A stretch of DNA of 64,000 nt from Candidatus Omnitrophota bacterium (GCA_044225175.1 JBGAJA010000002.1:146917-210916), one strand, 5' to 3'; positions 21,883-43,460 are shown, counted from the first letter of the stretch. The notes: generated by a model not told the origin, from the sequence alone. A program made the numbers and translations.

Positions 21883-21888
21883 GTTAAC

Positions 21889-23701: not shown

Positions 23702-23789
23702 CAGGAATTTAATGTTTTTGTAAGGTATTGCAGGTCATTTAGTTGGAATATAAAGTGTTTGGCAAATAGTAAAATTTTTTGAGTCGGGG

Positions 23790-23818
23790 TTGCATACTGA
23801 CATTTTAGAGGGTATACT
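23790..23818 (+). promoter_or_regulatory. Candidate sigma70 promoter (TTGCAT - 17 nt - TATACT) for the PPIase gene
   Basis: Sequence match 30 nt upstream of a GGGAGG RBS and the ATG at 23850. Confidence 0.35.
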
Positions 23819-23849
23819 TAAATACATATTTTCTTTTAGGGAGGCTTTT

Positions 23850-24785: not shown

Positions 24786-24810
24786 TCTCATCTGGAGTCG
24801 GAGGTAAGGC

Positions 24811-25635
24811 ATGGCTATCGAAAATCAAAAACAAATCATTCTAATTGGAATTGCCGTTGTCGCTGGTATTGGGGCTGCGGTTTTAATTGGCAATTGGAAG
24901 ACCCAAGAAATCAATCAAAAAACACAAGAGTTGCACGATCAATACGAACAACAACAAAAACAAATGGCTGCTGAAATTCAAAAAAGCAGTGAACAGCAAG
25001 TAGCAGCAGTCAGAGAAGAGCTTAACCAAGTCCGTCAACAGCAGCAGGAAGCAATTGAACAGGCCATGAAATCTGCAAAAGAAGCAGAAGCACAAAAGGG
25101 AGCAAGGCTTTCAAACACTCTTTTAACTGCTAAGACTCCTGGTGGTAAAAGAGCTGTAACAGTCATGGTGGATTCATTGAATGCTGTTGGGGGGTTGCTC
25201 AATGCAGGGGATTATGTTGATGTGATTGCTCATCTTGATGTTCCCGATAATGCATCAGACAAGAAAAAGACTTTAACAGCCATGGTTTTTCAAGACCTTC
25301 AGGTGTTGGCCATCAACACTAATTTGGATCAACCTGGAAATTATGATCAACAACAAGGCGCTCCATTTTTAAAAGTAACATTCGCGGTTGATCCACAAGA
25401 AGCAGGCCTTCTAGCTTTTGCCAATAAAAATGGTAAGTTAGAACTAGCGCTTCGTCCTTCCAACGACAACGATAAACAAACAGTCAAAAGCTCCACATGG
25501 AGTACTTTAGCTGAGTATGTTTTACAAAATCAAGGGTCTTCTCTTGATCTTCCAGGGATGGAAGCAGCTTCCGAAAAGACAGAAACTACTAATAAACCGT
25601 ACATACAAATTTTTAGAGGCGGTAAGGAGCTTTAA
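24811..25635 (+). CDS. cpaB: Flp pilus assembly protein CpaB/RcpC-like
   Basis: N-terminal TM helix, coiled/Q-rich linker, and a C-terminal SAF-like domain. It sits directly upstream of the secretin. Confidence 0.5.
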   Translation: MAIENQKQIILIGIAVVAGIGAAVLIGNWKTQEINQKTQELHDQYEQQQKQMAAEIQKSSEQQVAAVREELNQVRQQQQEAIEQAMKSAKEAEAQKGARLSNTLLTAKTPGGKRAVTVMVDSLNAVGGLLNAGDYVDVIAHLDVPDNASDKKKTLTAMVFQDLQVLAINTNLDQPGNYDQQQGAPFLKVTFAVDPQEAGLLAFANKNGKLELALRPSNDNDKQTVKSSTWSTLAEYVLQNQGSSLDLPGMEAASEKTETTNKPYIQIFRGGKEL

Positions 25636-25638
25636 TTC

Positions 25639-27606: not shown

Positions 27607-27658
27607 AGAAGAATTGTAAAAGCATAGATATATGCAAAACTAGACTGATGACAAAACT

Positions 27659-27703
27659 AAAAACCGTGATACAATATTTTCTATTGTCCACGGTTTTTAG
27701 TTT
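27659..27703 (+). terminator. Rho-independent terminator after the secretin gene
   Basis: 10-bp stem aaaaaccgtg/cacggttttt with a 20-nt loop, followed by tttttagttttt. Confidence 0.5.
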
Positions 27704-27770
27704 TTGCAGTATCCTCCATTCTTCAGAGTCTCCGAGAAGAAAAGGCAATATCTAACATGAAAGATTAATT

Positions 27771-29930
27771 ATGTTGAGCAAAGTCATTACGGTTTTCAGC
27801 AATAAAGGTGGAGTTGGAAAAACTTTCGTTGCGGTCAACGTTGCAGCTGCTTTAACACTTAAAGGAAAGAAGGTGTTAGTTGTAGACTTAGATCTTCAGG
27901 CGGGTCAAAACATGGCCCGTATGTTTAACTTAACTCCTGCCCACTCTCTCGTCGATATTCTAGAAGCAATTAAAACCGACGACCATGAAATGGTCAAAAA
28001 ATTAGTTACAGCTCATTCTAGCGGACTTGATTTCCTTCCTGCTGTTATGAATCTTCGACAAGCTGGACGCATTACAGCTGACAATATACGGCATTTCTTT
28101 AAAATGGTTAGCTCCTTATATGATTATGTCATTGTGGATGCTGACAAAATGTTTACAGAAACGCTCATCAGTGTTTTAGACAATACAAATTTAATTCTTT
28201 TAGTCACAACTCCAGATATTCTAGCTGTTACCCAAGCGAAGAACAGCATCGATATTTTACAAAGTTTGCACTTTCCTTTGAAGATGTCCAGATTGATTCT
28301 AAATCGTGCGGAGAGTCGAGGGGGAGTTGCATGGCAGGAAGTCCAATCAGCCCTGCCCGCTGAAATATTCTCTTTGATCCCTTCTGATGGTAAAACGGTA
28401 GGATTGGCTCTCAACAGGGGCATTCCTTGCGTGATTGATAGTCCTCGCACAAGAGTTTCCGAAGTATTTTTTGAGATGGCAGACAAGCTCCAAGCTCACG
28501 ACATCTATGTAGCTTCCTCAGATGTGGTGAAAGTCCGAGCCAGCGATACGATTGCTGCTAAAGGAAATGAATTTTGGGAGAAATTTGGAATCGGTCTAGG
28601 AGGAGCTCCACAGGTTAAGGATGCTTTTAGAAAAGAAGAAGACGAAATTATCCGACTCAAAAAAGCCATCCATCACAAACTTGTTGATCGAATGAACTTG
28701 AAAAAGATTTCAACAGAAACGATTACAGACATTCAACAAGCGGCTAATATTCGAAAAGCCGCAGAAAAGATCGTAACAGATTTGCTGGCTGAAACATCTG
28801 GTTCCATCCTCTCATCCCATGAACAGCGTTCACGTTTAGTCCGTGAAATTGTTAATGAAGCCGTTGGGTTGGGTCCTTTAGAAGATTTTCTTGCTGATGG
28901 GGACATAACAGACATCATGGTGAATAATAAAGATGAAATATTCGTCGAGAAAAGCGGAAAAATACTTTTAACAAACAAACACTTTATTTCCAATGAGCAA
29001 GTTCGAGCAACCATCGATAGAATTATTGCTCCTTTAGGAAGACGTATTGATGAATCCACCCCCATGGTGGATGCTCGCCTTCCCGATGGTTCGCGTATCA
29101 ATGCCATTATTCCTCCGTTGTCTTTAAATGGTCCAATGATCACTATCCGTAAATTCTCCCAAGAAAGATATACGATTGATGACATGCTCAATAAATTTAA
29201 CTCCCTCTCTGCCCCCATGGCCGAGTTCTTAAATGTTTGTGTTATTGGGCGAAAGAACATGATTATCTCCGGCGGAACAGGCGCAGGAAAGACAACTCTT
29301 TTAAACATTGTTTCTCAATTCATCCCTGATAACGAACGCATCATTACAATTGAAGATGCTGCAGAGTTACGCTTGTCTAAAAGTCACTGGGCCCGTTTAG
29401 AATCCAGGCCTGTTAACATTGAAGGCAAGGGAAAGATCACGATCAGAGATCTTTTTACCAACACTCTTCGTATGAGACCAGATCGCATTATTATTGGGGA
29501 ATGCCGTGGACCAGAAGTTTTAGACATGTTGCAAGCGATGAATACAGGCCACGACGGGTCTTTAACCACATTGCATGCGAATTCACCAAGAGATGTTCTT
29601 TCGCGTCTTTCTTCGATGGTCTTGTTATCGGGAATCGAATTACCTATTAGAGCCGTTTATGAAATGACAGCTTCCGCCATCAACATTATTGTCCAAATTT
29701 CTAGATTCTCCGACGGCACACGTAAAATAACTGCAATCTCTGAACTCACTGGAAAAATGTTGGATACCATCCCTGAAATGAAAGACATTTTTGTCTTTAA
29801 GCATGCGGGCATTAATGCAGATGGTGTAGTTCTTGGAGAATATGTTCCAACAGGGTATGTCCCTAAATGCTACGATGATTTTATAACTCGCGGGCTTCCT
29901 CTTAACAAAGAGATATTCAATCCTTCATAA
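27771..29930 (+). CDS. Fused TadZ/CpaE-like (MinD/ParA-type) plus TadA/CpaF secretion ATPase, 719 aa
   Basis: N-terminal deviant Walker A 'SNKGGVGKTFVAVN' (MinD-like, no receiver domain). The C-terminal half carries CpaF motifs: Walker A 'GGTGAGKTTLLN', 'IITIEDAAEL', His-box 'MNTGHDGSLTTLHAN'. Confidence 0.8.
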   Translation: MLSKVITVFSNKGGVGKTFVAVNVAAALTLKGKKVLVVDLDLQAGQNMARMFNLTPAHSLVDILEAIKTDDHEMVKKLVTAHSSGLDFLPAVMNLRQAGRITADNIRHFFKMVSSLYDYVIVDADKMFTETLISVLDNTNLILLVTTPDILAVTQAKNSIDILQSLHFPLKMSRLILNRAESRGGVAWQEVQSALPAEIFSLIPSDGKTVGLALNRGIPCVIDSPRTRVSEVFFEMADKLQAHDIYVASSDVVKVRASDTIAAKGNEFWEKFGIGLGGAPQVKDAFRKEEDEIIRLKKAIHHKLVDRMNLKKISTETITDIQQAANIRKAAEKIVTDLLAETSGSILSSHEQRSRLVREIVNEAVGLGPLEDFLADGDITDIMVNNKDEIFVEKSGKILLTNKHFISNEQVRATIDRIIAPLGRRIDESTPMVDARLPDGSRINAIIPPLSLNGPMITIRKFSQERYTIDDMLNKFNSLSAPMAEFLNVCVIGRKNMIISGGTGAGKTTLLNIVSQFIPDNERIITIEDAAELRLSKSHWARLESRPVNIEGKGKITIRDLFTNTLRMRPDRIIIGECRGPEVLDMLQAMNTGHDGSLTTLHANSPRDVLSRLSSMVLLSGIELPIRAVYEMTASAINIIVQISRFSDGTRKITAISELTGKMLDTIPEMKDIFVFKHAGINADGVVLGEYVPTGYVPKCYDDFITRGLPLNKEIFNPS

Positions 29931-30326: not shown

Positions 30327-31730
30327 ATGGGTGTTGTTTATAAATTAACTCCAGAGATCAGTGCTTTTATTATTGAGCATAAACAGAGCAATCCAGCGAC
30401 GACATGTCAGGCATTGTCAGATATTGTTTTAGCTAAATTTGACCAGCACGTTTCAAAATCTTCGGTTCACGAACTTCTTAAACAAGCTCATGTCATTACT
30501 CCCAGGGTTCGCAAAGTTAAAGAAAAATTTCAGATTCCGACACACAAGAAACAACAAATTTCAAAAGCATTAGCTCCTTTTGTAGCCATTGGATCATCAA
30601 CACCTCCAAACATTTCCTTGGTGCAAACAGTCCCTACAAAAGTTGCTCCCCCTGAGATAATAGAAGAGATCATCCCAGAAGAACAACCCACTCAACAACC
30701 TAAAGAATACATATCTGGAAAAGGCGATATTTTTATTCAAAGTGCCCTATTTGATTTATCTAACAAACCCATTGTTGGGATCAGCGATTTCAACCAGATG
30801 GATTCCGTTGATCAAAATAAAATAAAAATGGAATGGGAGTATTTAACACAGCTAGTGTATGCCATTAAAATTGAGTTAGAAAGCGGATATGTTTTTTTCA
30901 TTGATCCCAGATTTCAGGGAATTTATGATTACAATCCCAATACACCAACATTGGCAGCTCCCATAGAACGAGCGGCCTATGAAGTGGCAGACTACATTTT
31001 AAATAATATTAAGCCTATAATTATTCGCAAATTTGATGCAAGTTGTTCAAATGATTTAACTTATGATATTTTTTCCGCTTTCCAAAACATCTCTCTTAAG
31101 AAGATTATCAAAATTGCGCTAATAGGGGCCAAAGATGAACAAATTGTTGAATTTAATCATCCCCTTGGAATTCAAAGAAATTTTATCATAGCAGTTGATT
31201 CACAAAACACTCAGTACCAATGGTTTATGAATAATTCAGCTGTGGAAACTACATGGAATTTGCCAATGAAGGATAATTCAACCTCTCCCACCGTAAGGCT
31301 CCTTAAAAAGTCTAACAAAATCATCATAACTAACTTAGAATCAATGACTTATGCAGAATCTGTTAAAATGTATGAGGAAAGACATCCAGGAGAAAGTCTT
31401 CAGTTAAGTGTAATTGAGAATCAAAAATCAGAACAGAGTACAGATTTCATTGTTTGGTTTAAAAATAAGCTTCAACAACGAGCATTAATGTTTTTTCCCC
31501 AGTCTTTTTCACGACAGGCGCTTGAAGATGCGACCCGCTTAGAGGGTTATGAACAAAAGATCGTCGACAAGAAGAAAAATTTGATAGAAATCAAAGTGCA
31601 TTTGAGGGTTTCTTCCAATCATCCTCAAATACAACAATTTCAAAGGGCTGCTGAAAATATTAACAGTCTAAATATTAGCGATTTTCAGGGAATGAAAAGA
31701 ACCGTAAAGTTAGATATTAGCAGCGAATAG
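30327..31730 (+). CDS. Hypothetical protein with an N-terminal HTH-like region
   Basis: 467 aa with no TM. The N-terminus 'LTPEISAFIIEHKQSNPATTCQALSDIVLAKFDQHVSKSSVHELLK' looks like a transposase-type HTH. The rest is unrecognizable. Confidence 0.35.
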   Translation: MGVVYKLTPEISAFIIEHKQSNPATTCQALSDIVLAKFDQHVSKSSVHELLKQAHVITPRVRKVKEKFQIPTHKKQQISKALAPFVAIGSSTPPNISLVQTVPTKVAPPEIIEEIIPEEQPTQQPKEYISGKGDIFIQSALFDLSNKPIVGISDFNQMDSVDQNKIKMEWEYLTQLVYAIKIELESGYVFFIDPRFQGIYDYNPNTPTLAAPIERAAYEVADYILNNIKPIIIRKFDASCSNDLTYDIFSAFQNISLKKIIKIALIGAKDEQIVEFNHPLGIQRNFIIAVDSQNTQYQWFMNNSAVETTWNLPMKDNSTSPTVRLLKKSNKIIITNLESMTYAESVKMYEERHPGESLQLSVIENQKSEQSTDFIVWFKNKLQQRALMFFPQSFSRQALEDATRLEGYEQKIVDKKKNLIEIKVHLRVSSNHPQIQQFQRAAENINSLNISDFQGMKRTVKLDISSE

Positions 31731-31773
31731 AGAAAGGGTTTTCTTGAAAACAGTCTGGGGTGGTTGACAGCCT

Positions 31774-31808
31774 ATATAATATATGGCATACTTTAGCTAA
31801 GAAAACAT
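31774..31808 (+). promoter_or_regulatory. Candidate promoter (TTGACA - 17 nt - CATACT) upstream of the first flp gene
   Basis: Sequence match only. Confidence 0.3.
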
Positions 31809-31943
31809 AAACATGACTTCGTTTTCATGTCCTTCTTCATGAAGGGCTTCACATAAATAATGACCCAATTCCACGTGACTTTATTTGGGATGAAATAAAG
31901 TCAGGGTCACAATCGCCTTTATGAAGCATCATAAGGAGCAACA

Positions 31944-32099
31944 ATGATTCGCCACAGAAACACACACGGACAAAATATTATCGAATATGCGATCATTGTA
32001 GCTTTAGTGACGGCCGCACTGGCTGCCATGAGTACTTATGTGTTTCGTTCCGTACAAGCAACTCAAAAGGCCGTTGAAGGGGCAGCTGCTAATCAATAA
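31944..32099 (+). CDS. flp: Flp-family pilin (51 aa). Not in the ORF track because it is shorter than 60 aa.
   Basis: Hand translation: MIRHRNTHG|QNIIEYAIIVALVTAALAAMSTYVFRSVQATQKAVEGAAANQ*. AAGGAG RBS 7 nt upstream. Flp motif G/xxxxEY plus a hydrophobic helix. Confidence 0.7.
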   Translation: MIRHRNTHGQNIIEYAIIVALVTAALAAMSTYVFRSVQATQKAVEGAAANQ

Positions 32100-32117
32100 A
32101 ACTAAGAGAGGGTGTCT

Positions 32118-32390
32118 ATGGTAAGAACAATCAAATACCACACAATCAAAGACAATAAGGGGCAAAGTACAATTGAATACATTGTTCTTGTGACCGCTGT
32201 TATTGCCATCATCATTTTGTTTATGACTGGTCAAAACAGCATGTTTGGAAATAAAATAACAAATACGTACTGCACAACGGCAGAAGGAATGTCTGAAAGA
32301 GCATCAGCATTGTCAGAGACACATAACTCAGAAGCTGGAAATCAAGCGAATTCCATTGTGACAGTGAATGTATTACAAAACCTTTTTTAA
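32118..32390 (+). CDS. Flp/TadE-family prepilin
   Basis: ...KG|QSTIEYIVLVTAVIAIIILF. Confidence 0.6.
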   Translation: MVRTIKYHTIKDNKGQSTIEYIVLVTAVIAIIILFMTGQNSMFGNKITNTYCTTAEGMSERASALSETHNSEAGNQANSIVTVNVLQNLF

Positions 32391-32424
32391 TTAATGACCA
32401 AGAAATTTCCTAACAGGAGGATTT

Positions 32425-32778
32425 ATGTTAAGACAATTAGCTAATAAAAAAGCCCAAAACACCGCCGAATACGCGCTTTTGATTGCCCTTGTTGTAGCCG
32501 GTGTTATTGCCATGCAAACATATGCCCAACGCGCTTTGCAAGCCCGCGTGAGAGACGCTTCCTTATACATGAGTAATACAACAAAGGAAATAGGAACAAC
32601 TAATCAATACGAGCCTTATTACACGCAAAGTAATTATGCTGTCTCCCGAGAATCAGAAAGCAATAAACAGCTAGCTGAAGGAACAGTAGCTCAAGGACAG
32701 GCAACCAATAGAACCCGTGCAAAGGGTGGTGAACAAAAATCCACATATGACAATGCAGTACTTCAAAGTGGTATTTAG
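32425..32778 (+). CDS. Flp/TadE-family prepilin (paralog of 33462..33866)
   Basis: ...KA|QNTAEYALLIALVVAGVIAM; AGGAGG RBS; shares 'QYEPYYxQS' with paralog 6. Confidence 0.6.
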   Translation: MLRQLANKKAQNTAEYALLIALVVAGVIAMQTYAQRALQARVRDASLYMSNTTKEIGTTNQYEPYYTQSNYAVSRESESNKQLAEGTVAQGQATNRTRAKGGEQKSTYDNAVLQSGI

Positions 32779-32830
32779 GCAAACAATTGTAACTGTACAC
32801 ATAGTTTAAGACATATTTTAAGGAGGATGT

Positions 32831-33169
32831 ATGATTACATATCTTAATGGTAGAAAAGGGCAAAGCACCCTCGAATATGCGGTATTAATCATTATTATTA
32901 TCGCAGCCTTAATTGCCATCCAAACGTATATCAAGCGTGGTGTCCAGGGGCGCCTTAAATCCGCTTCAGACGATATTGGCGATCAATTTTCCCCAGGTAA
33001 TACCAATGTCATATGGGCAGAAAAAACCAGAACCAATGAACAACAGACTTTTGGGATTCAAGGGCAGGGAGTCCAATCAACTACATTGTTGTCCAATGAA
33101 GTAACTAACACAATCATGAAGTCGTCCGTTGCTAAATCAGACCAAGAATATTGGGGCACAGATAAATAA
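32831..33169 (+). CDS. Flp/TadE-family prepilin (paralog of 34201..34539)
   Basis: ...KG|QSTLEYAVLIIIIIAALIAI; AAGGAGG RBS; shares 'KRGVQGRLKxxxDDIGDQ' with paralog 8. Confidence 0.6.
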   Translation: MITYLNGRKGQSTLEYAVLIIIIIAALIAIQTYIKRGVQGRLKSASDDIGDQFSPGNTNVIWAEKTRTNEQQTFGIQGQGVQSTTLLSNEVTNTIMKSSVAKSDQEYWGTDK

Positions 33170-33259
33170 GGAGAAGTTTTTTAAAAGTAATGGAAGCACA
33201 AGAGGGTTCGGAAATCTCATTTCGAACCCTCTACACTTTAACTAATATTAAGGATGATT

Positions 33260-33451
33260 ATGAAAAAAAAGGGCCAAAGTACTGTGGAATACATTTTGCT
33301 CGTGACAGCAGTTGTAGCCGTCATTATTGTCATTGTTAACGGAGACAAGTCGCCTTTTCGCAAAAAGTTAAACACGACGATCGACACCATCACTAATGGA
33401 ATGGAAGATAAGGCGTTCACGCTTACCAATATGATGGGTAATCAACAGTAG
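33260..33451 (+). CDS. Flp-family pilin (about 63 aa)
   Basis: MKKKG|QSTVEYILLVTAVVAVIIVIV. Confidence 0.6.
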   Translation: MKKKGQSTVEYILLVTAVVAVIIVIVNGDKSPFRKKLNTTIDTITNGMEDKAFTLTNMMGNQQ

Positions 33452-33461
33452 GTGATCAGAC

Positions 33462-33866
33462 ATGTTTAAAAGCCGCCAACAAGGAACGGTTTCTATCAGT
33501 GAATATATTTTGGTGTTCATACTTGTGGTTGCTGTGGTCGCTGCTATGGCCGTGTACATCCAAAGATCCCTTCAAGGTCGGCTGCGAGATGGCAGGCATT
33601 ATGCCATGACTAAATTTAGAGAAGAATGTGTGCGTACTAATTGCGTAGGTACAGGAGAAGTAGGAGAACAGTATGAACCATACTATCTCCAATCCAAGGC
33701 AAACATTGCTACAGACAGCCTTAAACACAAAGGACTGATGACATCCAAATTAGGAAGCTCGGGAATATTTGTCGCCAGAACTAGTTCTAATAATCAAAGC
33801 AATGCCCAGGCTACACAGCTTCCTCCAATGAATGCCATCAATGATCAAGTCCTGGGGAAAAAATAA
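33462..33866 (+). CDS. Flp/TadE-family prepilin
   Basis: ...QQG|TVSISEYILVFILVVAVVAAM. Confidence 0.55.
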   Translation: MFKSRQQGTVSISEYILVFILVVAVVAAMAVYIQRSLQGRLRDGRHYAMTKFREECVRTNCVGTGEVGEQYEPYYLQSKANIATDSLKHKGLMTSKLGSSGIFVARTSSNNQSNAQATQLPPMNAINDQVLGKK

Positions 33867-34183
33867 TGAAGAACCAGGGACAAACCATACTGGAATATGT
33901 CATGCTCTTGGGGTTAGTCACAATTGTTTTGGTCTATATGAGTGTCGACATGAAACGAGCCGTGCAAAGTATGGTGAAAGTAACGGCCGACCAACTGGGC
34001 AATCAAGTCAATGCCGACCAAGACTTTAATGGTCAAATCAAACAAGGCATTATGACCAAATCTATGACCAATACATGGCAAGGACAGCAGCAGCTTCGCA
34101 GCGAAAGAGAAGGAATCATTAATCAGCAAGTAGGGGATTTCACAGATACGAAAACTAATACGACAACGAAAATAGATAATTAG
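33866..34183 (+). CDS. Flp/TadE-family prepilin
   Basis: MKNQG|QTILEYVMLLGLVTIVLVYM; TAATG overlap with the previous gene. Confidence 0.6.
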   Translation: MKNQGQTILEYVMLLGLVTIVLVYMSVDMKRAVQSMVKVTADQLGNQVNADQDFNGQIKQGIMTKSMTNTWQGQQQLRSEREGIINQQVGDFTDTKTNTTTKIDN

Positions 34184-34200
34184 CATCCAGAAAGACATTC

Positions 34201-34539
34201 ATGCTTATGAAAAGATTATCCATTCAAAGAGGCCAAAGTTTAATCGAATACTCTATCCTGATTATTATTGTTATCGCTGTGTTTTTATCCATGAATAGCT
34301 ATTTTAAAAGAGGTATTCAAGGCCGCTGGAAAGCATCGATTGATGATTTAGGCGAACAATATGACCCGCGCACAACTAATTCTCTCATCAACTATGTCCT
34401 TAATAGCAGTTCGAATACTTCAATAGATGTGGTTCCAACGAGCAATGGAGATTTTTGGACCAACCGTGTGGACACTTCTTCTTCTTCCGAATCTAAGGGT
34501 GGACAAACGGTTGTAGGAGCCTTGCTCAACAAACTTTGA
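34201..34539 (+). CDS. Flp/TadE-family prepilin
   Basis: ...RG|QSLIEYSILIIIVIAVFLSM. Confidence 0.6.
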   Translation: MLMKRLSIQRGQSLIEYSILIIIVIAVFLSMNSYFKRGIQGRWKASIDDLGEQYDPRTTNSLINYVLNSSSNTSIDVVPTSNGDFWTNRVDTSSSSESKGGQTVVGALLNKL

Positions 34540-34545
34540 GAAGAT

Positions 34546-36171
34546 ATGTTTAATAGAAAATTCGTCAGATTCTTTAATGGCCCTTTCAAATCTCCACGCT
34601 CACAAAGCGGACAGGCTGTTATTGAAATTGCCCTTTTTGGCGCCATCCTGATCTTTTTAATAGGCGTTATTCTTCGCACTCATCTAAGTCATTCTTTTAG
34701 CACCAACCATCAAGTCAGGGCCATGAAGCTGGCTTTGCAGCAAAGTTATTTAGGCAGCGTCGGAAAGATTCCCAATAGTTCCAGAAACTCTGCCAGTATT
34801 CTCTTTATAGAAGACAGGCTCTCACCGGACTTAAATAAATTTGCAGCGATTGAAAGAAATCCATTTGTCGCCAATGGTTCAGGAACAATGACTGATCGAC
34901 TAAACTACCCAATCGATTTTGGGGAGGTAGGGCATAATCTTCCTATCATGGATATTTTTGTCAACGGCCAGCACTTCCCTTTGACGGTAGGGGCCTATGT
35001 CTTTAGAGTCATTTATCCGCAAAATGACACAGATGCAAAAGGAGATGCTTGTCCTCCTGATTTTATGGGGCCTGATCATGGTCCAGAATTTATCAGATGC
35101 CTTCGTCAGGAGCATGAATGGAAAGAAGGATCACCCACATTCTATCAACAGATTGTTAACGGAACACAAGACTATAACCCCCTCGCTTCCAAAGACAGTT
35201 GGGACCTATTACGCAATAATTGGGACAAAAATCGTCTCACTAAGCCTATTACGGGCAATGTTTTCTCGGATGATGTGGATGAAGGCATTATTCGTAATTA
35301 TATTGCCTGGCAGTGGAAGCCTATCAAAGGCGTAGGCTCAAGTCTTGACTTTGGTTCAGACGATAATCCTAACTATCCTTCAATGGACTTTTTAGGGAAT
35401 CTTAGAGAACAAACCGCTTATTATGTCAGTCAAAAACCTGTAGATAAATTATTGGCCATTTTAAGTTCACCTTCTCTGGCGTTTTATGAAATTAACCCTG
35501 GCGGCGGCGGTAGTTATGCAGCAGGAAACAGCGGGTACGTCTTATCGTTGACCGATGAATTGACTAATGCTCCAACAGGATTTAATTTTACAAACCCCAA
35601 AAGTTGTGACACAGGAAACGGTATGGGAGTTTTGTGCTTGACCCGCGCCCCATCGGCAGGAAATATTACAGGAGTTGTTGTTTTGGATAATCAGGCAGGA
35701 GATATTGATCTGGCCTATGATGATAAAACATCTCCTGGTCCTAAACCAGGTCTTATGCAGCAAATGGCCATTTACAGCTGGGTCGTTCCTCCGGATGGTA
35801 AAAAACAAGGAACATTCATGCAAATTAAAGAAGGAAAATTGTATAATCCTGAGACCCATCAAGTCGTGCGAAGCATTAGCAGCAAAGACCACGTGGATTT
35901 GATCTCACGCATGTTTCAACTGAGCAATAATACCCAGCGCTTTTGCAAGACAAGCATTATGTATGGATCAACTCCTGTTCCTTATTTGGCCGATCAAAGT
36001 CCTGATGCTAATCATCCTGTTCCAAATCCGGTTGAGGCATGTGGAGAGTGTAATAGTAAAAACATTAACAAAACTTGTTTTGATCCGGCCTCTCGGATTT
36101 TATTTATCAGGACATTGATAGGGGATGCAACCACACGCAAGTGGTTTACAGATGTAACCAAGGGATTATAA
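34546..36171 (+). CDS. TadG-like large pseudopilin (541 aa)
   Basis: Flp/TadE-like N-terminus '...SG|QAVIEIALFGAILIFLIG' followed by a roughly 480-aa domain. Its size matches TadG. Confidence 0.45.
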   Translation: MFNRKFVRFFNGPFKSPRSQSGQAVIEIALFGAILIFLIGVILRTHLSHSFSTNHQVRAMKLALQQSYLGSVGKIPNSSRNSASILFIEDRLSPDLNKFAAIERNPFVANGSGTMTDRLNYPIDFGEVGHNLPIMDIFVNGQHFPLTVGAYVFRVIYPQNDTDAKGDACPPDFMGPDHGPEFIRCLRQEHEWKEGSPTFYQQIVNGTQDYNPLASKDSWDLLRNNWDKNRLTKPITGNVFSDDVDEGIIRNYIAWQWKPIKGVGSSLDFGSDDNPNYPSMDFLGNLREQTAYYVSQKPVDKLLAILSSPSLAFYEINPGGGGSYAAGNSGYVLSLTDELTNAPTGFNFTNPKSCDTGNGMGVLCLTRAPSAGNITGVVVLDNQAGDIDLAYDDKTSPGPKPGLMQQMAIYSWVVPPDGKKQGTFMQIKEGKLYNPETHQVVRSISSKDHVDLISRMFQLSNNTQRFCKTSIMYGSTPVPYLADQSPDANHPVPNPVEACGECNSKNINKTCFDPASRILFIRTLIGDATTRKWFTDVTKGL

Positions 36172-36173
36172 AA

Positions 36174-36425
36174 ATGAAAAACAAAACAGCCCAATCCACG
36201 ATTGAATTTACTTTTGCCATGGTTGCGGTTGCTTTGTTGATTTTTTCTTTGGTCAAAACTTTTCGATGGGTGGGTATGGATTACGCCCAAAGCGCCTATC
36301 TTCAAGAACAGTCTAATATTTTTGTTCATAACGATAAGTGTGAACAAAGAGGCGACTGCTTTAGTTTAAACGCTGAAAACAATACGCGTGGACAGCGATT
36401 AGGTGCTTTTACAAGGAAGTATTAA
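36174..36425 (+). CDS. TadE-like pseudopilin
   Basis: MKNKTA|QSTIEFTFAMVAVALLIF (TadE 'QSTIEF' motif). Confidence 0.55.
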   Translation: MKNKTAQSTIEFTFAMVAVALLIFSLVKTFRWVGMDYAQSAYLQEQSNIFVHNDKCEQRGDCFSLNAENNTRGQRLGAFTRKY

Positions 36426-36426
36426 T

Positions 36427-39400
36427 ATGGATCAAAACACTAAGAAGAAAAAATATCGCGGACTATTATCATCATTTCAAAGAGGCCCCCAAGGGCAGAC
36501 ATCTTTGATTATGATTTTGATATTGGCTGCGGCTTTTATTTTTTATGCGATTTCCTTAAATTGGAGCAAAATTTCCAGTGTTAAAACAACGTTGTGGATG
36601 GCGAGTGTCACGGCCTCTGCTCAATCGGCGTCGATGTTTGCCAGCTATGGCGAAAGGGTCATTCAAGAGCAGCTTATTCCTTTAGGAGGCATTGAATACA
36701 ATAACGGGAATCTTAGGCATGAAGAAAATGGCCTAGGGGTCCTTATCTTTAAGATATTTATTATTATCGTTGTAGCTATTTTAACCTGGTATATGGGTGG
36801 GTATCCTGCGGCTATTCTTGTGGCAGCCATGATGACAACAAGTTTGGTCATTGAATACATGGTCATTCGGCCCATGACATTTTCGATGTGGAACAAGCTG
36901 CAGCAAAACCTTCAGCCTGTCGACCAATTCCGTGAGTCTGCAATCACGACGGGGATGCAGCAAATCGTCACCGACAGCGTAACTGTGCCGGACCGCTTTG
37001 ATTTAAATGTGAATGGTCTTTGGGGTGCATCGACAAATCCTTCGGACCCCATCAGTCGTTTTGCTTTGTTTTATACCGAACGATTAAAAGCCGTCAAACC
37101 ACCAGATACGGCAGGGATTGAAGCCTTTCAAACAGGCCTTAATAATTTAATCACTCAACCAACACCAGCTAATATCATGGGTCCAACACTAGAAGAGCCG
37201 GGACTTGGGTTTACCCCCTATTGCACAGGAAAAAATTCTTCCGACCCACAATGCAATCCTCAGTGCACAGGAATTTTCAATAGACCTGCACTAGGTAATA
37301 AATCTTCTGGGTTTGGATGGCGGTATACCAAAGATACTGACCAGATCACTTATTATGTTCCAGGACAATGTATTCAAGCTAATGGCACAAAGTATCGTCT
37401 GCAATATAATAGCGCAAAAGAAGGAGGCCCTAAAAAAGCTGATCCTAATGATCCAACTAATTCTTTTCGATACCGTTTAGGCTTCGACGACGAAATAGGA
37501 AAAAGTTTAAATAGCGACAAAACCAATGGCTCAATAGATGGCTCTCCCGTTTACCATCCGGCTACATCTTTAAAAAATGGACTTGTTTTTCCCATGCTTA
37601 ATCAAATGTATAAGATAGATCCTTCTATCTATGAGCCCGTGGCTCTTGGAGCTTTGAGTGCTGATCTTTCTAAAGAGGCTCAAGCGCAGTATTCAAAATT
37701 ATATACGGACAGCGTCACGCCCATGGCTAACTATTTGGCAGGTGATGTTGATTGCGCACAAATGAGAAACTCATCCGAAGGCTTTTATTGGAAAAAAGGG
37801 GCAGACCGCTATTGCTCAGGATTTGTGCAAAGCTATCCTTTAGAAGTAGCAAGTCTAGCCAATAAAAATGTCAGCTACGCTCCATCCACAGCAAGCCAAG
37901 AGCCTAATTATCATTGGCCATATTATCAGTGTCAATACATGCTTAACTCCCAAGGAGAAATTCAGCAATGCGCAGACAGTCCTAATAAGAAACTTTGGCC
38001 TCAAGACCGCATGGACAATTTGGTGTATCAAATCAACGAATTTATTCAATTTAACAATACCATTAAAGGGATGGACAAAAAAAGTTTGGTTGCTTCTTTT
38101 GATCAATGGTATCAAACTGTAATGCCTTTTATTGCTCCTCGATGTTCAGAAGGAAATAGTAATACGCCACTAGATCAATTTGTTTCGGTCAATTTTAAAC
38201 ACATGACGGTCTTTACAAGTGATGCGGCTATTTGCAATCCAGATGCTCAAGGATACATGTATCAATGGATTTATGATTTGCAGAATTGGCAGAAGCTGAT
38301 TAAAGACCCTGCGGACCCTAAAAAAGGGTGGATCAATCAAAGTTTTGGGGACCCAGCAAAAGATTTATGCAGTGGAAAACTTTCGAATTCGGACCCTATG
38401 AACCCAGGGATTGCAGAGTGTTTGGAGAATAAATCCATCTATACGAAACAATTGGATAAGTGCGATAATAATTTTCCTAAACCTACAGAACAGGATGAAC
38501 ATGGGCAATGGATTTATAGCAATGTGTATTTAAATCCAGAGTGCATTGAAGTCATGTACCATCGTCAAACCCAACCATCCAGATTTTTGACCACGTTATC
38601 AGGAACATTTACAAATATTCCTTCATTCCCGCCGCCTTCAGATTTTAAGTTTCCTGTGAATAATAAAGAAACCTATTTCGCTATTAAAGGCTGGGTTAAA
38701 GACAACCGTATCTTAATGGATGCAGTGTATAACAAGAAAATCGTTGTTCAGAATTTGTATAAGTATGCTCAGCAATCCGCTAGTCTTTTTGAAGAAGGGG
38801 CCCAAGAGTTTAGTCGATTCTTAGGTCTGGGAGCTCCGGCCTATGCACTGATGGATAGTGTTTCTGATCGCATAAGTTCGATCAAACGATTGCCTAGTTT
38901 TGCTATCTATGGGTGGAAGGACCATAAGGGACCTATTGGCAGTAATACCAATAATGAATTGTGGCATTTGGCACGTATTGAAGTGGCCCAGCCAGGTCGA
39001 TTGCCGTGGATTAAGATTACCAAACACGGGGCTTTAGGTTCTAATGTGCGCTATACCTATACCGATGGGCAGGGGGATGTTTTGGTCAGAGCCACCCGTT
39101 GGGACCAAAGTTTCGATGGAGGAATAGCCAATTTTGCTAATGGTCTTAAGATATGGAAATTTAGATATGGGAATCCTAAATATAAGGATACGGACACAAA
39201 CACCGGCGGAGAATTAGAGAATATGTGTATGGAGAAAGATACCGGTGCGGGAGGAGTAATATTTGGATATGGTCTTACTTCAGACACCAGAGCTGCATTG
39301 CAAGCGAATTTGCCTCATAATCCTTCTGTTCAAAGTAATTCTTCGGAAGGCAAGGCTTATTCAACGGCTTTCATGCTGAATTTAGATCCAAGAGCCAGCA

Positions 39401-39807
39401 CAGATAAGCTCACATCTCAGATCAAAGATCCAGTGCCTGATAAAAACACGTGCCATTTCGCAGATAAATGCGGAACATTAAATGACTATGCCGCATGCTG
39501 TGCGAAAGCGCCCTCGGGATATTATGGCAAAGACTGGCAGCAGTATTGTCAAAAAACAAATTTGGCTCGATGCCAGAAAAACAAGCAAATCAAAGAGATT
39601 ATTGATAATTTAAAAGACACAGAAGGTTGTTTTTATGGGGCTACAGATTTATTAAACACAGGAGTTCAATCTATTTCAGGGGCGCACTTTGGTGTCCCCA
39701 ATGAAAAACCCTATCACTTAGGTATATTCTTTCACAGTTCAGCAGACGCAAAAAAACAGGGAGTTTTTACAAGGGATACGTATAATGATCATTCCCAATA
39801 TGACTAA
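36427..39807 (+). CDS. Giant pilin-like protein (1126 aa): Flp/TadE-like N-terminal helix, a second TM segment, and a large Cys-rich extracellular domain
   Basis: N-terminus '...QG|QTSLIMILILAAAFIFYAI' after an AAGGAAG RBS. Second hydrophobic segment around aa 120-150. About 30 Cys, including a 'CCAKAPSGYYGKDWQQYCQKTNLARCQ' cluster at the C-terminus. Confidence 0.5.
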   Translation: MDQNTKKKKYRGLLSSFQRGPQGQTSLIMILILAAAFIFYAISLNWSKISSVKTTLWMASVTASAQSASMFASYGERVIQEQLIPLGGIEYNNGNLRHEENGLGVLIFKIFIIIVVAILTWYMGGYPAAILVAAMMTTSLVIEYMVIRPMTFSMWNKLQQNLQPVDQFRESAITTGMQQIVTDSVTVPDRFDLNVNGLWGASTNPSDPISRFALFYTERLKAVKPPDTAGIEAFQTGLNNLITQPTPANIMGPTLEEPGLGFTPYCTGKNSSDPQCNPQCTGIFNRPALGNKSSGFGWRYTKDTDQITYYVPGQCIQANGTKYRLQYNSAKEGGPKKADPNDPTNSFRYRLGFDDEIGKSLNSDKTNGSIDGSPVYHPATSLKNGLVFPMLNQMYKIDPSIYEPVALGALSADLSKEAQAQYSKLYTDSVTPMANYLAGDVDCAQMRNSSEGFYWKKGADRYCSGFVQSYPLEVASLANKNVSYAPSTASQEPNYHWPYYQCQYMLNSQGEIQQCADSPNKKLWPQDRMDNLVYQINEFIQFNNTIKGMDKKSLVASFDQWYQTVMPFIAPRCSEGNSNTPLDQFVSVNFKHMTVFTSDAAICNPDAQGYMYQWIYDLQNWQKLIKDPADPKKGWINQSFGDPAKDLCSGKLSNSDPMNPGIAECLENKSIYTKQLDKCDNNFPKPTEQDEHGQWIYSNVYLNPECIEVMYHRQTQPSRFLTTLSGTFTNIPSFPPPSDFKFPVNNKETYFAIKGWVKDNRILMDAVYNKKIVVQNLYKYAQQSASLFEEGAQEFSRFLGLGAPAYALMDSVSDRISSIKRLPSFAIYGWKDHKGPIGSNTNNELWHLARIEVAQPGRLPWIKITKHGALGSNVRYTYTDGQGDVLVRATRWDQSFDGGIANFANGLKIWKFRYGNPKYKDTDTNTGGELENMCMEKDTGAGGVIFGYGLTSDTRAALQANLPHNPSVQSNSSEGKAYSTAFMLNLDPRASTDKLTSQIKDPVPDKNTCHFADKCGTLNDYAACCAKAPSGYYGKDWQQYCQKTNLARCQKNKQIKEIIDNLKDTEGCFYGATDLLNTGVQSISGAHFGVPNEKPYHLGIFFHSSADAKKQGVFTRDTYNDHSQYD

Positions 39808-40243
39808 AAAGAACTTTAAGAACAATCAGGGAGCGAGTTTGATTGAGTATGCTTTTCTGATTATTCTTATTCTCTCAGCCATGTGGGTCATGAAAGACAT
39901 GATCAGTCGTGGAATTTTTGCCAAGTACAGGCAATCTGGAGAAAGTTTTGGATTTGGTCGTCAGTATGATGCTAAACGCACGAGTGTGTGCAGGCAGGAC
40001 GTCAAAAGTTATAAAGACGATGGTACAGTCAATGAAGTAAGCGAATTTTATGATGAAGATTGTTATCAAACCCGTGTTAGGCGTCCGGCGAGTTTCAATT
40101 TAGAAGCACCGGGAACCTGGAACACCGAAGGCGGATGCCCTGCATGTGACCCCGGCAACACATCGGATTCCAAAGCATGCTTTAAATGTGAGGATGACAT
40201 TAAAAAACAATGCGCTGTTGATCACGCATATTGTTTGCAATAG
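39800..40243 (+). CDS. Flp/TadE-family prepilin with a Cys-rich C-terminal domain
   Basis: ...QG|ASLIEYAFLIILILSAM; C-terminal 'CPACDPGNTSDSKACFKCEDDIKKQCAVDHAYC'. Confidence 0.55.
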   Translation: MTKKNFKNNQGASLIEYAFLIILILSAMWVMKDMISRGIFAKYRQSGESFGFGRQYDAKRTSVCRQDVKSYKDDGTVNEVSEFYDEDCYQTRVRRPASFNLEAPGTWNTEGGCPACDPGNTSDSKACFKCEDDIKKQCAVDHAYCLQ

Positions 40244-40295: not shown

Positions 40296-41153
40296 ATGAT
40301 TACACTTATTTTATTTTTGATTTTTATTTCTTTTGCAGCATTGACGTATAGCCTTCTTCCCATCTTGACCAGAGGCGCAACAGACATCAATCAGCGTCAG
40401 GCCCAGCAGGTCTTAAATAATGCAGATCTTTATTTGCAAGATGCAGATTTGCAAAAGGCCCAACGCATTACGCTCGTCATGCCCGCTGTTCTGGCCATTT
40501 GTGGTTTCTTGTTTTTTCCAGAAAATCTTCGCGTTCCAGGGGCTATTATCGGAGTGATCGTTGGAATCATTATCCCGCGTATTTATGTTTCTAGCCTTAT
40601 CAGCAAAAGAAAAGAAAAGTTTAATGATCAGCTGGTTGATGCTCTGATGATTATGTCGAGTTCTTTTCGAGGGGGGCTTTCTTTGGTGCAGGCGATTGAG
40701 GCGGTCGTTGATGAAATGCCAGATCCTGTTAAGCGAGAGTTCGGAATTGTTTTGGGAGAAAATAAAATGGGCGTTTCTTTGGAAGAAAGCTTGACGCGTC
40801 TACAGGTTCGCATGCCATCGGTTGCCCTTCAACAAATGATTACAGCCATCTTGCTTGCTCGTGAAACAGGCGGTAATCTGCCTGTGATTTTCTCAAGGAT
40901 TGTCAGCACCATTCGAGAACGAAAGAAAATTGAACAAAATCTGAAGACATTAACCATTCAAGGAAAGATTCAAGCCGTTGTCATGACCCTCCTTCCTCTG
41001 TTCTTTGTGATGGGTGTTAGTGCGACGAATCCAAAGTTTTTTGATGTCATGTTTCGTCTCCCCGAAGGCAGGCAGATGTTAATGGTTTGTGTTGTTCTAT
41101 GGGTTGTTGGGGCTATATTAATTTGGAGAATCAGCAAATTTAAGGAAGTTTAA
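40296..41153 (+). CDS. tadB: Tad/Flp pilus inner-membrane platform protein TadB (T2SS-F family)
   Basis: 285 aa, polytopic, with a GspF-like cytoplasmic domain. It sits in the Tad locus. Confidence 0.75.
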   Translation: MITLILFLIFISFAALTYSLLPILTRGATDINQRQAQQVLNNADLYLQDADLQKAQRITLVMPAVLAICGFLFFPENLRVPGAIIGVIVGIIIPRIYVSSLISKRKEKFNDQLVDALMIMSSSFRGGLSLVQAIEAVVDEMPDPVKREFGIVLGENKMGVSLEESLTRLQVRMPSVALQQMITAILLARETGGNLPVIFSRIVSTIRERKKIEQNLKTLTIQGKIQAVVMTLLPLFFVMGVSATNPKFFDVMFRLPEGRQMLMVCVVLWVVGAILIWRISKFKEV

Positions 41154-41156: not shown

Positions 41157-42062
41157 ATGTTAACCATGGCCATGTTGTTAGTTTTTCTAGCTATTTTTGC
41201 GGCGATCTTAGCTTTCATTCCTTTTGATAGTCGTCCCACATTAAAGTTGGACATGACATTGACGCCAAGCCCCTTTGGACAAGAAATACAGACCAAAAAG
41301 AAAAGCCCTCTTTCCGGTCTAGTAAGTCTTTTAAGAAAGGCGGCTTTTTTTAATAAGCCTTTTACCAAGTCGGATTTAGGACAAAGAATATTCAGAGATT
41401 TGTCCTTAAGTCAGACACCCATATCGACGGAAGAATTCCTTTTGATAAAACAAATTTTGGTTGTCGTCCTTATTTTGATTTCTATCAAGATCAATCCAGA
41501 CCCCTCCTTCTTAATGTTTTCTGTTTTAATGGCGGTTGCAGGTGGGTATATTCTTCCCGAATTCTGGCTACGTATGCGAGTTAAAAAAATTAAAGAGTCC
41601 ATTTTGCGTGATTTGCCAGATACGGTTGATCTTTTAGGTCTTTGCGTGAACGCTGGTCTTGATTTTATGATGGCCCTTCGTTATGTGGTGGAAAAGTCAC
41701 AACCCTCAGTCATCATCGAAGAGCTTAGGATCATGATGCAGGAAATCAATGTAGGTAAGCCTCGCAGGGATGCTCTGCGGGATTTATCTAGGAAATATGA
41801 AATGCCGGATTTGGCGACCTTCTCTCGTACCTTGATCCAAGCAGATCGCATGGGTACCTCGGTGTCAGAGGCCCTTAATATTCTCTCCGAAGATATGCGC
41901 GAAACCCGCTATCGCAGAGGCGAAGCCATGGCGCTCAAAGCCCCTCTTAAAATGCTTATTCCCCTGTTATTGTGCATTTTCCCAGTTGTGGCCCTTTTAG
42001 TCGCCGGCCCCATCTTCCTAGACTTCATGCACAACAACCCTCTACAGAACTTAGCCAAATAA
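41157..42062 (+). CDS. tadC: Tad/Flp pilus inner-membrane platform protein TadC (T2SS-F family)
   Basis: 301 aa, a paralog of TadB, in the locus position expected for tadC. Confidence 0.75.
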   Translation: MLTMAMLLVFLAIFAAILAFIPFDSRPTLKLDMTLTPSPFGQEIQTKKKSPLSGLVSLLRKAAFFNKPFTKSDLGQRIFRDLSLSQTPISTEEFLLIKQILVVVLILISIKINPDPSFLMFSVLMAVAGGYILPEFWLRMRVKKIKESILRDLPDTVDLLGLCVNAGLDFMMALRYVVEKSQPSVIIEELRIMMQEINVGKPRRDALRDLSRKYEMPDLATFSRTLIQADRMGTSVSEALNILSEDMRETRYRRGEAMALKAPLKMLIPLLLCIFPVVALLVAGPIFLDFMHNNPLQNLAK

Positions 42063-42083
42063 AAAGGTGTCAGACACCTTTTT
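42061..42083. repeat. REP-like palindrome copy 1: AAAAAGGTGTCAGACACCTTTTT
   Basis: Exact 23-mer, one of four copies. Confidence 0.75.
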
Positions 42084-42192
42084 ATTGACTATTTTTAGAT
42101 GAATAATTATCATTTTGTCATCTGATTCTCCCCATCAGAAGCAATCCATACCCCAATTGCTAAGTAATTTCAAAAAATCAAAATTCCTATCC

Positions 42193-42251: not shown

Positions 42252-42935
42252 ATGCCTCGAAAACCACGAATCATCATCCCAGGAGAAATGTTTCATGTAA
42301 CCCAAAGAGGAAATTATCAACAACCTGTCTTTGAAGATGATCAAGACAGGGTAGTTTATTTAAAACTTTTACAAAAATATAAACAACAGCATGCTCTTAA
42401 TCTTTTTGCCTATTGCTTAATGAGTAATCATGTTCATTTGATTGTAAAACCAGAAGATCATACTTCCTTAGCTAAAACAATGGCCCATACCCATCAGAAC
42501 TATGCTCTTTATTTTCATAAAAGAAGAAAACGTCAAGGTCATTTATGGCAGCAAAGGTATTATTCCTGTTTGCTATATGGTCAGCATATTTTACAGGCCA
42601 TACGATATGTGGAAAGAAATCCAGTAAGGGCCGGTATGGTCGCTCAACCTTGGGAGTACGTTTGGTCCAGCGTTAACGCGCATCTAGGTAAAGTATATAA
42701 AATAATTACGTTAGAAGATAGTTCAGCTTTAATAAAAGATTCGGAATGGAAAGATTTTATTAGCTCTCCAGAAGACCTGACTCAAAATGATCAGCTTAGG
42801 CAAAGAACTCTCAAAGGATCTGTTTTAGGTGCGAAAGAAGACATTCAAGCTTTAGAAGAACGCCTAGGTCGCAAAGTCATCTTTATCCCTAAAAAAGTAA
42901 AGAAGATGTCAAAAAGGTGTCAGACACCTTTTTGA
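42252..42935 (+). CDS. IS200/IS605-family Y1 (HUH) transposase, REP-associated tyrosine transposase (RAYT)-like
   Basis: HUH motif 'SNHVHLIV', 'GHLWQQRYYS' catalytic-Tyr region, and about 60 aa of N-terminal similarity to TnpA_IS200. The C-terminus is translated through a REP copy. Confidence 0.8.
   Translation: MPRKPRIIIPGEMFHVTQRGNYQQPVFEDDQDRVVYLKLLQKYKQQHALNLFAYCLMSNHVHLIVKPEDHTSLAKTMAHTHQNYALYFHKRRKRQGHLWQQRYYSCLLYGQHILQAIRYVERNPVRAGMVAQPWEYVWSSVNAHLGKVYKIITLEDSSALIKDSEWKDFISSPEDLTQNDQLRQRTLKGSVLGAKEDIQALEERLGRKVIFIPKKVKKMSKRCQTPF
42912..42934. repeat. REP-like palindrome copy 3 (overlaps the RAYT 3' end)
   Basis: Identical 23-mer. Confidence 0.75.
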
Positions 42936-43022: not shown

Positions 43023-43109
43023 ATTAGCTAAAAAGGTTATTTACGGTTAAATAATGGCCATTTAAGAAGATTATATAATTGCAGGCTGGCTTAATTGTAA
43101 AAATAGATC

Positions 43110-43132
43110 AAAAAGGTGTCTGACACCTTTTT
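43110..43132. repeat. REP-like palindrome copy 4 (central A to T variant)
   Basis: AAAAAGGTGTCTGACACCTTTTT. Its flank 'gattactattttta' resembles the copy-1 flank 'attgactattttta'. Confidence 0.7.
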
Positions 43133-43460
43133 GATTACTATTTTTAAGAAAGCCTTTTCTTGGAATGGGTGGATAAGAGGGGTTTTTTGGTTTCAAAAGG
43201 GGGTTGATATAAATTTAGGACGAACCGAAAAAAGCTTTCTTAGAAGGCACACCCCATCCTTTAAAAATAGATATTCCATAAACTATTTGATTTTAATAGG
43301 TTATAACTTAGAAAAAATAATTAAAGTGGTGGATGAAAATTATTTTTATGACATTTTATATATAAAAACTGATTTCAATTTTATTTTCTAGATTAATTTA
43401 AGTAGAATCGTAAACCATTGGTACTAAAGAGGATAAAATTGAAATAATATTTTGGAAAAT

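Follow-up and report, generated by a model that had tools for sequence, protein, structure and literature searches.

Twelve consecutive pilin-like genes within a Tad-type locus of a Candidatus Omnitrophota bacterium

The stretch of Candidatus Omnitrophota DNA analysed here (GCA_044225175.1, JBGAJA010000002.1:146917-210916; 64,000 nucleotides, hereafter the window) carries on its plus strand, at positions 31944-40243, twelve back-to-back, co-oriented open reading frames (ORFs), named g1 to g12, within a Tad-type locus adjoining dnaA-dnaN-gyrB-gyrA. Their products measure, in order, 51, ~90, 117, 112, 65, 134, 105, 112, 541, 83, 1126 and 147 amino acids (aa), and the spacing between neighbours ranges from -8 to 84 nt. 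Most starts are preceded by a purine-rich sequence resembling a ribosome-binding site (RBS), such as AAGGAG for g1, CAGGAGGA for g3 and AAGGAGGA for g4. The g2 start is likelier to be the ATG at 32118, with its RBS AGAGAGGG, than the GTG at 32112, and g10 starts at 36174; g5 (33254/33260), g8 (34201/34207) and g12 (39785/39800) have two plausible ATG codons each. The genes are as follows, a slash marking the predicted cleavage site:

31944-32099, +: g1, Flp-type prepilin of 51 aa (mature form ~42 aa); HG/QNIIEY followed by a helix (MIRHRNTHG/QNIIEYAIIVALV...)
32118-32390, +: g2, small pilin-like protein of ~90 aa, paralogue of g5; KG/QSTIEY; Class_IIIsignal, 24.2 bits
32425-32778, +: g3, pilin-like protein of 117 aa, paralogue of g6, with a QYEPYY motif; KA/QNTAEY
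32831-33169, +: g4, pilin-like protein of 112 aa, paralogue of g8; KG/QSTLEY
33254-33451, +: g5, small pilin-like protein of 63-65 aa, paralogue of g2; KG/QSTVEY; Class_IIIsignal, 25.4 bits
33462-33866, +: g6, pilin-like protein of 134 aa with two conserved Cys; QG/TVSISEY; TadF, E 0.024
33866-34183, +: g7, pilin-like protein of 105 aa, orthologues in 10 loci, next nearest to g8 and g4; QG/QTILEY
34201-34539, +: g8, pilin-like protein of 110-112 aa, paralogue of g4, related to g12; RG/QSLIEY
34546-36171, +: g9, large pilin-like protein of 541 aa, Glu5 followed by Ile; SG/QAVIEI
36174-36425, +: g10, small TadE-like, pilin-like protein of 83 aa; TA/QSTIEF
36427-39807, +: g11, giant pilin-like protein of 1126 aa lacking Glu5, with an extra transmembrane (TM) hairpin and 22 Cys; QG/QTSLIM
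39800-40243, +: g12, Cys-rich pilin-like protein of 147 aa (152 aa from 39785); QG/ASLIEY

Eleven of the twelve proteins share one N-terminal plan, in which a short Lys/Arg-rich leader ending in Gly or Ala is followed by Gln-x-x-x-Glu-[Tyr/Phe/Ile] and then by about 20 hydrophobic residues, a segment present in all of g1 to g12. Gln occupies position +1 in 10 of the 12 families. Departures from the plan are limited to g6, with Glu at +6 through a one-residue insertion as in its orthologues, most of which read GQSxxxEY; g9 (Glu-Ile); g10 (Glu-Phe); g12 (Ala at +1); and g11, which keeps the Gly/Gln site but has Ile at +5. A relaxed scan for the motif in all six frames of the window returned 12 matches, namely the 11 Glu-bearing genes of the array and an N_methyl-type pilin at 8634-9119 on the minus strand, with 0 false positives; in 20 codon-shuffled windows the same scan gave 0 or 1 match each (mean 0.15). 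The twelve consecutive prepilin-like genes of the original prediction, made from this sequence before the present analysis, are thus borne out. It had also given every gene a G/A-xxx-(I/L)EY signature: the N-termini are indeed pilin-like in all twelve, but the signature does not extend to g11, without Glu5, or strictly to g6. It was correct in setting apart the genes at 36427 (g11) and 39800 (g12) as deviating at Glu5 or rich in Cys, g12 containing 8 Cys, with 4 Cys columns kept in at least 80% of its orthologues.

A scan of species-representative genomes yielded twelve related loci, all from metagenome-assembled genomes titled Omnitrophota or, for third-party assemblies, 'uncultured Planctomycetales'. 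Counting loci with enough sequence, all twelve genes are present one-to-one, in the same order and with similar sizes, in L002, L003, L005, L007, L011-L015 and L017 and in the more distant L018 and L019; even the 51-aa g1 is found in L003, where the source gene caller had missed it. The G+C content of these loci varies from 39% to 55%. By mean protein identity to the window copy, g1 (65%), g3 (62%) and g4 (59%) are the best conserved and g11 (32%) is the least. The small ORFs are thus real conserved genes; the lack of conservation in relatives that had been named beforehand as a refutation is not observed, conservation being strong. Since the twelve-gene set recurs in the same order across the related loci, it is an ancestral, lineage-wide feature. 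The original prediction spoke of a marked expansion; twelve genes do exceed the complement of classical Tad loci, but the architecture is ancient and not an expansion of this genome.

Small variations on the set were also seen. L012, L014 and L015 have an extra gene of ~800-980 aa between g11 and g12, which encodes a signal peptide and lacks the pilin motif, and in L005 and L007 the g12 orthologue is lengthened to ~400-470 aa. A tandem extra copy of the g3-g4 pair is present in L017 (111-2129).

Paralogy within the array was assessed by hhalign profile-profile comparison of orthologue alignments, both at full length and after trimming of the leader and the first 28 helix residues. Both paralogue pairs proposed earlier, 32425/33462 (g3/g6; E 2.4e-24 full length, 1.7e-12 trimmed) and 32831/34201 (g4/g8; E 2.3e-29 and 3.9e-9), are real, and a third is added by g2/g5 (E 1e-28 and 2e-5); g8 and g12 show a more distant kinship (E 1.4e-19). 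The order g2-g3-g4 followed by g5-g6-(g7)-g8 therefore marks a block of three genes as the unit duplicated. The event is older than the divergence of these lineages, since each paralogue is, in every locus, nearer to its own orthologues than to its partner in the pair. The segmental duplication first proposed from the pairs is in this way retained and enlarged, but as an ancient event, a recent one being rejected on the same grounds.

Assignment of the N-termini to known families is less clear-cut. The cut-off of the archaeal model Class_IIIsignal (PF04021; 23.7 bits) is passed by g2 and g5, the other ten proteins remaining below it. Curated thresholds of TadE and TadF (PF07811, PF16964) are not reached, and an NCBIfam scan of the ten small proteins (all but g9 and g11) gave nothing meaningful. 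Among 127 array N-termini from all loci, 27 match Class_IIIsignal, 20 Flp_Fap, 10 Flp1_like and 4 TadE at E<=0.01; N_methyl (PF07963) has no match among them or in any of the twelve window proteins. When a profile of all N-termini was compared with solved structures, the best matches were type IV pilins (Geobacter PilA-N, 4e-4), and archaellin and Flp pilins appeared only at E 0.03-0.5, which is not significant. On the Flp/TadE family test put forward in the original prediction, two members pass the class III model, but neither g1 with Flp_Fap nor the g10 orthologues with TadE attain the curated cut-offs (scores below). Gln at +1, where classical Tad pilins have Ala or Val, may be tied to EppA specificity or to pyroglutamate formation. 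It is the signature of the archaeal class III, or EppA-type, signal. This archaeal-type signature fits the origin of Tad systems from archaeal Epd-like pili inferred by Denise et al. 2019.

The g1 protein displays the Flp-type pattern, with a G/XXXXEY motif, a hydrophobic helix, a length of 51 aa and no globular domain. It has 82 homologues of ~50 aa, many of which carry a precomputed PF04964 match or the JGI name 'Flp pilus assembly pilin Flp', and 56 of 67 homologues match Flp_Fap at E<=0.01 (best 7e-8). By virtue of these homologues, g1 is best regarded as a divergent Flp-family pilin and not as a threshold-passing member. A candidate promoter lies in the 213-nt spacer that precedes it:

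31764-31792, +: promoter-like TTGACA-N17-CATACT with TG extension, ~150 nt upstream of g1 (10/12 in the scan)

The promoter scan as a whole did no better than chance, but 8 of the 9 loci aligned retain the promoter-like block GGTTGACA...TATATGGCATACTT, although they differ in base composition. The proposal that g1 is probably the major pilin fits its top conservation among the twelve, its similarity to Flp_Fap, its AAGGAG RBS and this conserved element; on such sequence evidence, g1 is likely the major pilin. A sigma-54 reading of a conserved TGGCAT block was rejected by inspection, the GC element being off by one position and not conserved elsewhere. The ~150-nt g1 leader (31793-31943) has conserved blocks and is predicted to form two hairpins, for which an alignment of six sequences shows some compensatory changes; it could be regulatory. 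An Rfam scan gave no match in the leader or elsewhere in the locus.

The two large members differ in how far they can be modelled. Structure prediction, proposed at the outset for the C-terminal domains, gave a confident model for g9, in which a 53-residue N-terminal helix is followed by a β-sheet and β-domains, but failed for g11, whose AlphaFold2 model (10 sequences) has a predicted local distance difference test (pLDDT) value of 50, too poor for a structure search. The g9 model has no counterpart among solved structures, and the family, with at least 122 members, is without a Pfam model. Neither g9 nor g11 matches PF13400 (Tad), the domain of TadG/KilN-type tip pilins. In g11, TM-grade segments occur at residues 26-44 and 102-120 (Kyte-Doolittle 2.79), with a weaker one at ~127-148. 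An exhaustive profile search placed at least 592 representative clusters in the g11 family at E<=1e-3 (291 at E<=1e-30). The homologues of the 1126-aa protein are confined to unnamed metagenomic proteins and proteins labelled Candidatus Omnitrophica. In the 146 of 153 examined members that have an N-terminal [Gly/Ala]-Gln site, position -1 is Gly in 141 and Ala in 5, Gln is invariant at +1, and none has Glu at +5 (Ile in 87, Val in 49). A second helix of strong hydrophobicity follows 45-150 residues downstream in 142 of them, and their median Cys content is 44. No Pfam match was obtained for g11, and only an occasional Big_7 (Ig domain) for its full-length relatives.

The array is embedded in the following genes:

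23790-24785, +: SurA-like peptidyl-prolyl isomerase, first gene of the conserved locus (Pfam Rotamase_2, 1.3e-16)
24811-25635, +: RcpC/CpaB (Pfam RcpC, 5.5e-25)
25639-27606, +: RcpA/CpaC-type secretin with a fused C-terminal TonB_C domain (T2SS-T3SS_pil_N, PF13629, 4.3e-12; Secretin, 7.8e-39; TonB_C, 2.1e-16)
27771-29930, +: fusion of a TadZ-like ParA/MinD domain (AAA_31/ParA/CbiA, residues 3-240) and a CpaF/TadA ATPase (T2SSE, 4.1e-59, residues 364-642), 719 aa
29954-30304, +: DUF192 protein (Pfam DUF192, 3e-18), syntenic in every related locus
30327-31730, +: conserved 467-aa protein with a soluble N-terminus (MGVxYKL...) resembling a helix-turn-helix (HTH); no Pfam match above noise (HTH_32, 0.069)
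40296-41153, +: TadB-like platform protein, single T2SSF (Pfam, 1.2e-17)
41157-42062, +: TadC-like platform protein, single T2SSF (Pfam, 1.5e-17)
43540-64000, +: giant ORF of more than 6820 aa from the six-frame scan, running off the window end, outside the array and 1.5 kb downstream of TadC

These genes supply the Tad/type IVc components of TXSScan/MacSyFinder (Denise et al. 2019): an ATPase, a TadZ-like domain, an RcpA secretin, RcpC and two contiguous platform genes with one T2SSF each, an arrangement that is itself a Tad criterion in that work. The Tad context claimed for the array is thereby confirmed by Pfam, and its placing between the Tad ATPase and tadB/tadC is correct except that the DUF192 and 467-aa genes come between the ATPase and g1. 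The TadZ-like label of the ATPase N-terminal domain denotes general Pfam ParA/AAA_31/CbiA matches; the orthologue measures 717-721 aa and has the same fusion in all relatives. Fusion of the secretin to TonB_C is also found in L003, L018 and L019. The SurA-like isomerase heads the locus in L018 as well, and is listed among the conserved genes by West-Roberts et al. 2023 (bioRxiv 10.1101/2023.11.21.568195). A literature search for DUF192 together with pili gave no relevant link. In all loci an orthologue of the 467-aa protein, 351-562 aa long and conserved at its N-terminus, occupies the same position; the protein is possibly a regulator, which could act on the promoter just downstream. The giant ORF agrees with the giant genes reported for Omnitrophota, and similar frames are found after TadC in L007, in L012 and in L002, where a gene of 19166 aa is called. 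Between TadC and the giant gene there is also an IS200-like Y1 transposase gene (42252-42935), situated among three near-identical hairpins of the form AAAAAGGTGTCAGACACCTTTTT (42058-42086, 42909-42935 and 43106-43136).

Judged from sequence, the array is probably the pilin module of a Tad-type (type IVc) pilus operon characteristic of Omnitrophota, with g1 forming the filament and the others serving as minor pilins. A prepilin peptidase encoded elsewhere would cut after Gly or Ala, leaving Gln at +1 in most members, and g1, an all-helical Flp-type subunit of ~42 residues with its own conserved promoter, would polymerize as the filament. Assembly on the TadB/TadC platform would be powered by the CpaF-type ATPase, and the filament would leave through the secretin. 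By analogy with other systems, the remaining eleven proteins might act in the priming of assembly and make up a complex tip or base, in which the small paralogue triplets (g2-g4 and g5-g8) could form a helix-bundle adaptor and g9, g10 (TadE-like) and g12, together with g11, a large distal module. Because it lacks Glu5 like GspK, evolves fastest and has a large Cys-rich ectodomain, g11 would be the best candidate for a capping or host-contact subunit; alternatively, it might stay anchored in the membrane by its extra hydrophobic hairpin. Together with the giant protein encoded next to it, the pilus may attach the cell to its host or prey, as suggested by expression of the Ca. Velamenicoccus archaeovorus Tad complex in co-culture and by the giant genes that flank the locus.

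Several observations weigh against this pilus interpretation. The match of g1 to Flp_Fap (PF04964; 20.8 bits, E 3.3e-4) is below the curated 32.2 bits, and the g10 orthologues score at most 19.8 bits with TadE, below the curated 22.9. No prepilin peptidase (Peptidase_A24, TadV/CpaA) turned up in the 64-kb window or at a distance of up to 10 kb from the related loci examined; tadV is frequently a 'loner' and may lie elsewhere than in the Tad locus (Denise et al. 2019). The second strong and probable third TM helix of g11 would hinder its extraction from the membrane. Multiple hydrophobic helices are untypical of an extracted pilin, and g11 may not be an extractable one. Finally, the roles given to individual minor pilins are drawn by analogy.

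Other explanations fit the observations less well. The possibility that the genes are chance ORFs or annotation noise, their motif recurring through low-complexity hydrophobic sequence, is suggested by the shortness of several ORFs (51-117 aa), by the absence of g1 from the ORF track that accompanied the original prediction and by the uncalled g1 orthologue of L003; it has next to no probability and is ruled out by the conservation data, with orthologues in ~13 loci across the whole G+C range at 22-74% protein identity to the window copies, as well as by 11 motif matches where shuffling leads one to expect ~0.15 and by the RBS-like sequences before most starts. A machine like the type II secretion system (T2SS), in which the twelve proteins would form a short periplasmic pseudopilus, or piston, for the export or placement of the giant protein or of other effectors, with no extended adhesive pilus, seems unlikely. 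It draws on West-Roberts et al. 2023, where the locus is called T2SS-like and is conserved upstream of giant genes, on the giant frames after TadC in the window and in three related loci, and on a secretin accompanied by no separate retraction ATPase that could be seen; moreover, the many minor subunits, including one without Glu5, recall GspH-K. However, the parts are of Tad and not of Gsp type (TadZ-like domain, CpaF-type ATPase, two single-T2SSF proteins, RcpC, PF13629 secretin), and the giant proteins have numerous TM regions according to West-Roberts et al. 2023, unlike folded periplasmic T2SS substrates. N_methyl is absent from the twelve yet present in a true pilin elsewhere in the window, and the first subunit is a 42-residue Flp-type pilin. 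In addition, L003, L005 and L018 lack a giant frame within 4-10 kb downstream (threshold >=1300 codons in L003 and L005; in L018 no gene after TadC is longer than 1352 aa).

It is also conceivable, but quite improbable, that the filament subunits are limited to g1, with perhaps a few of the small members, and that g9, g11 and g12 are membrane-anchored or surface proteins using the class III signal for targeting or processing, with g11 an inner-membrane base component. The sugar-binding proteins of the archaeal bindosome use the class III signal in this manner, and archaeal loci for class III signal proteins include non-pilin components. The second strong TM helix of g11 and nearly all its family points the same way, as do the lack of Glu5, a residue used for subunit-subunit contacts, and the large globular part of g9, which matches no solved pilin. 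Nevertheless, all twelve genes are strictly co-conserved one-to-one and tightly packed in an operon with the machinery, the modelled g9 shows the canonical arrangement of a long N-terminal helix and then a β-sheet, and large tip pilins with novel distal domains (KilN, TadG) are documented for Tad pili. Within the pilus interpretation, a further proposal is more ambitious and remains doubtful: that the g11 family constitutes an unrecognised 'anchor-pilin' class, with an ectodomain described as hypervariable, 900-1800 aa long and with ~44 Cys, which would cap a heteromeric Tad filament made of the eleven other subunits, an unusually large, archaeal-style (Gln+1) set, and couple the pilus to the giant protein as an Omnitrophota-specific organelle for attacking prey or host.

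Comparison with known systems places the locus near several of them. Classical Tad loci (Aggregatibacter flp-1/flp-2 and tadE/F/G; Caulobacter pilA and cpaJ/K/L) share the G/XXXXEY motif, CpaF/TadA, TadB, TadC, RcpA, RcpC and TadZ functions and a small helical major pilin. They have roughly three to six pilin-like genes compared with twelve here, where, in addition, the TadZ-like domain is fused to the ATPase and TonB_C to the secretin, tadV, tadD and rcpB are missing from the locus, and the DUF192 and 467-aa genes are inserted. GspK, the tip pseudopilin of the T2SS, lacks Glu5 and stands alongside GspI/J/H. This likeness, one large Glu5-less subunit among Glu5-bearing minor ones, would suggest a capping position for g11; however, the present locus has no N_methyl motif or Gsp assembly proteins, and g11 is ~3x larger than GspK and has extra hydrophobic helices. 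With archaeal Epd pili (Methanococcus, EppA-dependent), whose loci carry five or more minor pilins, the array has in common Gln at +1, Glu at +5, short major pilins and, for g2 and g5, the passing of PF04021, whereas the host here is a diderm bacterium with a secretin and RcpC, and its platform and ATPase follow the bacterial Tad organization.

The Kil system of Myxococcus xanthus, a predator, is a Tad-like predation pilus, which comprises KilP, KilK/KilO and four tip complexes of KilLMN (Herrou et al. 2025, PMC12075869). Its multi-pilin tips, in which a large distal subunit with many disulfides is the proposed tip, are reportedly all but restricted to Myxococcota. As in the Omnitrophota locus, a Tad machine is combined with one small Flp major pilin, many minor pilins in paralogous sets that arose by duplication, and a minor pilin of large size whose distal domain is novel. 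The Kil pilins are distributed among several loci, while all twelve genes here lie in one operon; g11 differs by its extra TM helices and missing Glu5, and the type III secretion (T3SS*) partner of Kil was not seen. No sequence relationship between the array proteins and Kil was detected.

Omnitrophota are ubiquitous, ultra-small and uncultured bacteria thought to be predators or parasites. The Tad-like locus and its adjacent giant genes are the main genomic clues to their attack on hosts. Seymour et al. 2023 (PMC10066038) reported Tad complexes across the phylum and, for Ca. Velamenicoccus archaeovorus LiM, expression of the complex when it is co-cultured with its archaeal host, the one such culture available; LiM belongs to the same phylum, and its Tad locus (LiM chromosome 12382-29832) is near dnaA, as here. 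This same conserved locus, upstream of giant genes, is described by West-Roberts et al. 2023, and a 2026 preprint repeats the association. Because the locus has been described coarsely in the first two papers, the window represents another member of a known, poorly characterized kind. All three papers treat the small genes collectively, whereas here they are resolved into twelve orthologous families. New with respect to all three are these families, the ancient block duplication, the Flp identity of g1 with its conserved promoter, the sharing of the signal by 541-aa and 1126-aa proteins, and the Glu5-less, multi-TM character of g11 as family-wide traits. The twelve defined families turn a vague annotation of 'many small class III signal genes' into testable hypotheses about a filament subunit of Flp type, adaptor triplets that arose by duplication, two large subunits and a Glu5-less multi-TM giant. 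Two large families without Pfam models, those of g9 and g11, are documented in the process.

Apart from the Tad locus, a separate cluster on the minus strand (8634-10588) contains Cys-rich pilin-like genes of the type IVa/T2SS style at 8634-9119 (N_methyl, 9.3e-9) and 10094-10588, between which lie two paralogous two-TM proteins (9137-9583 and 9629-10063).

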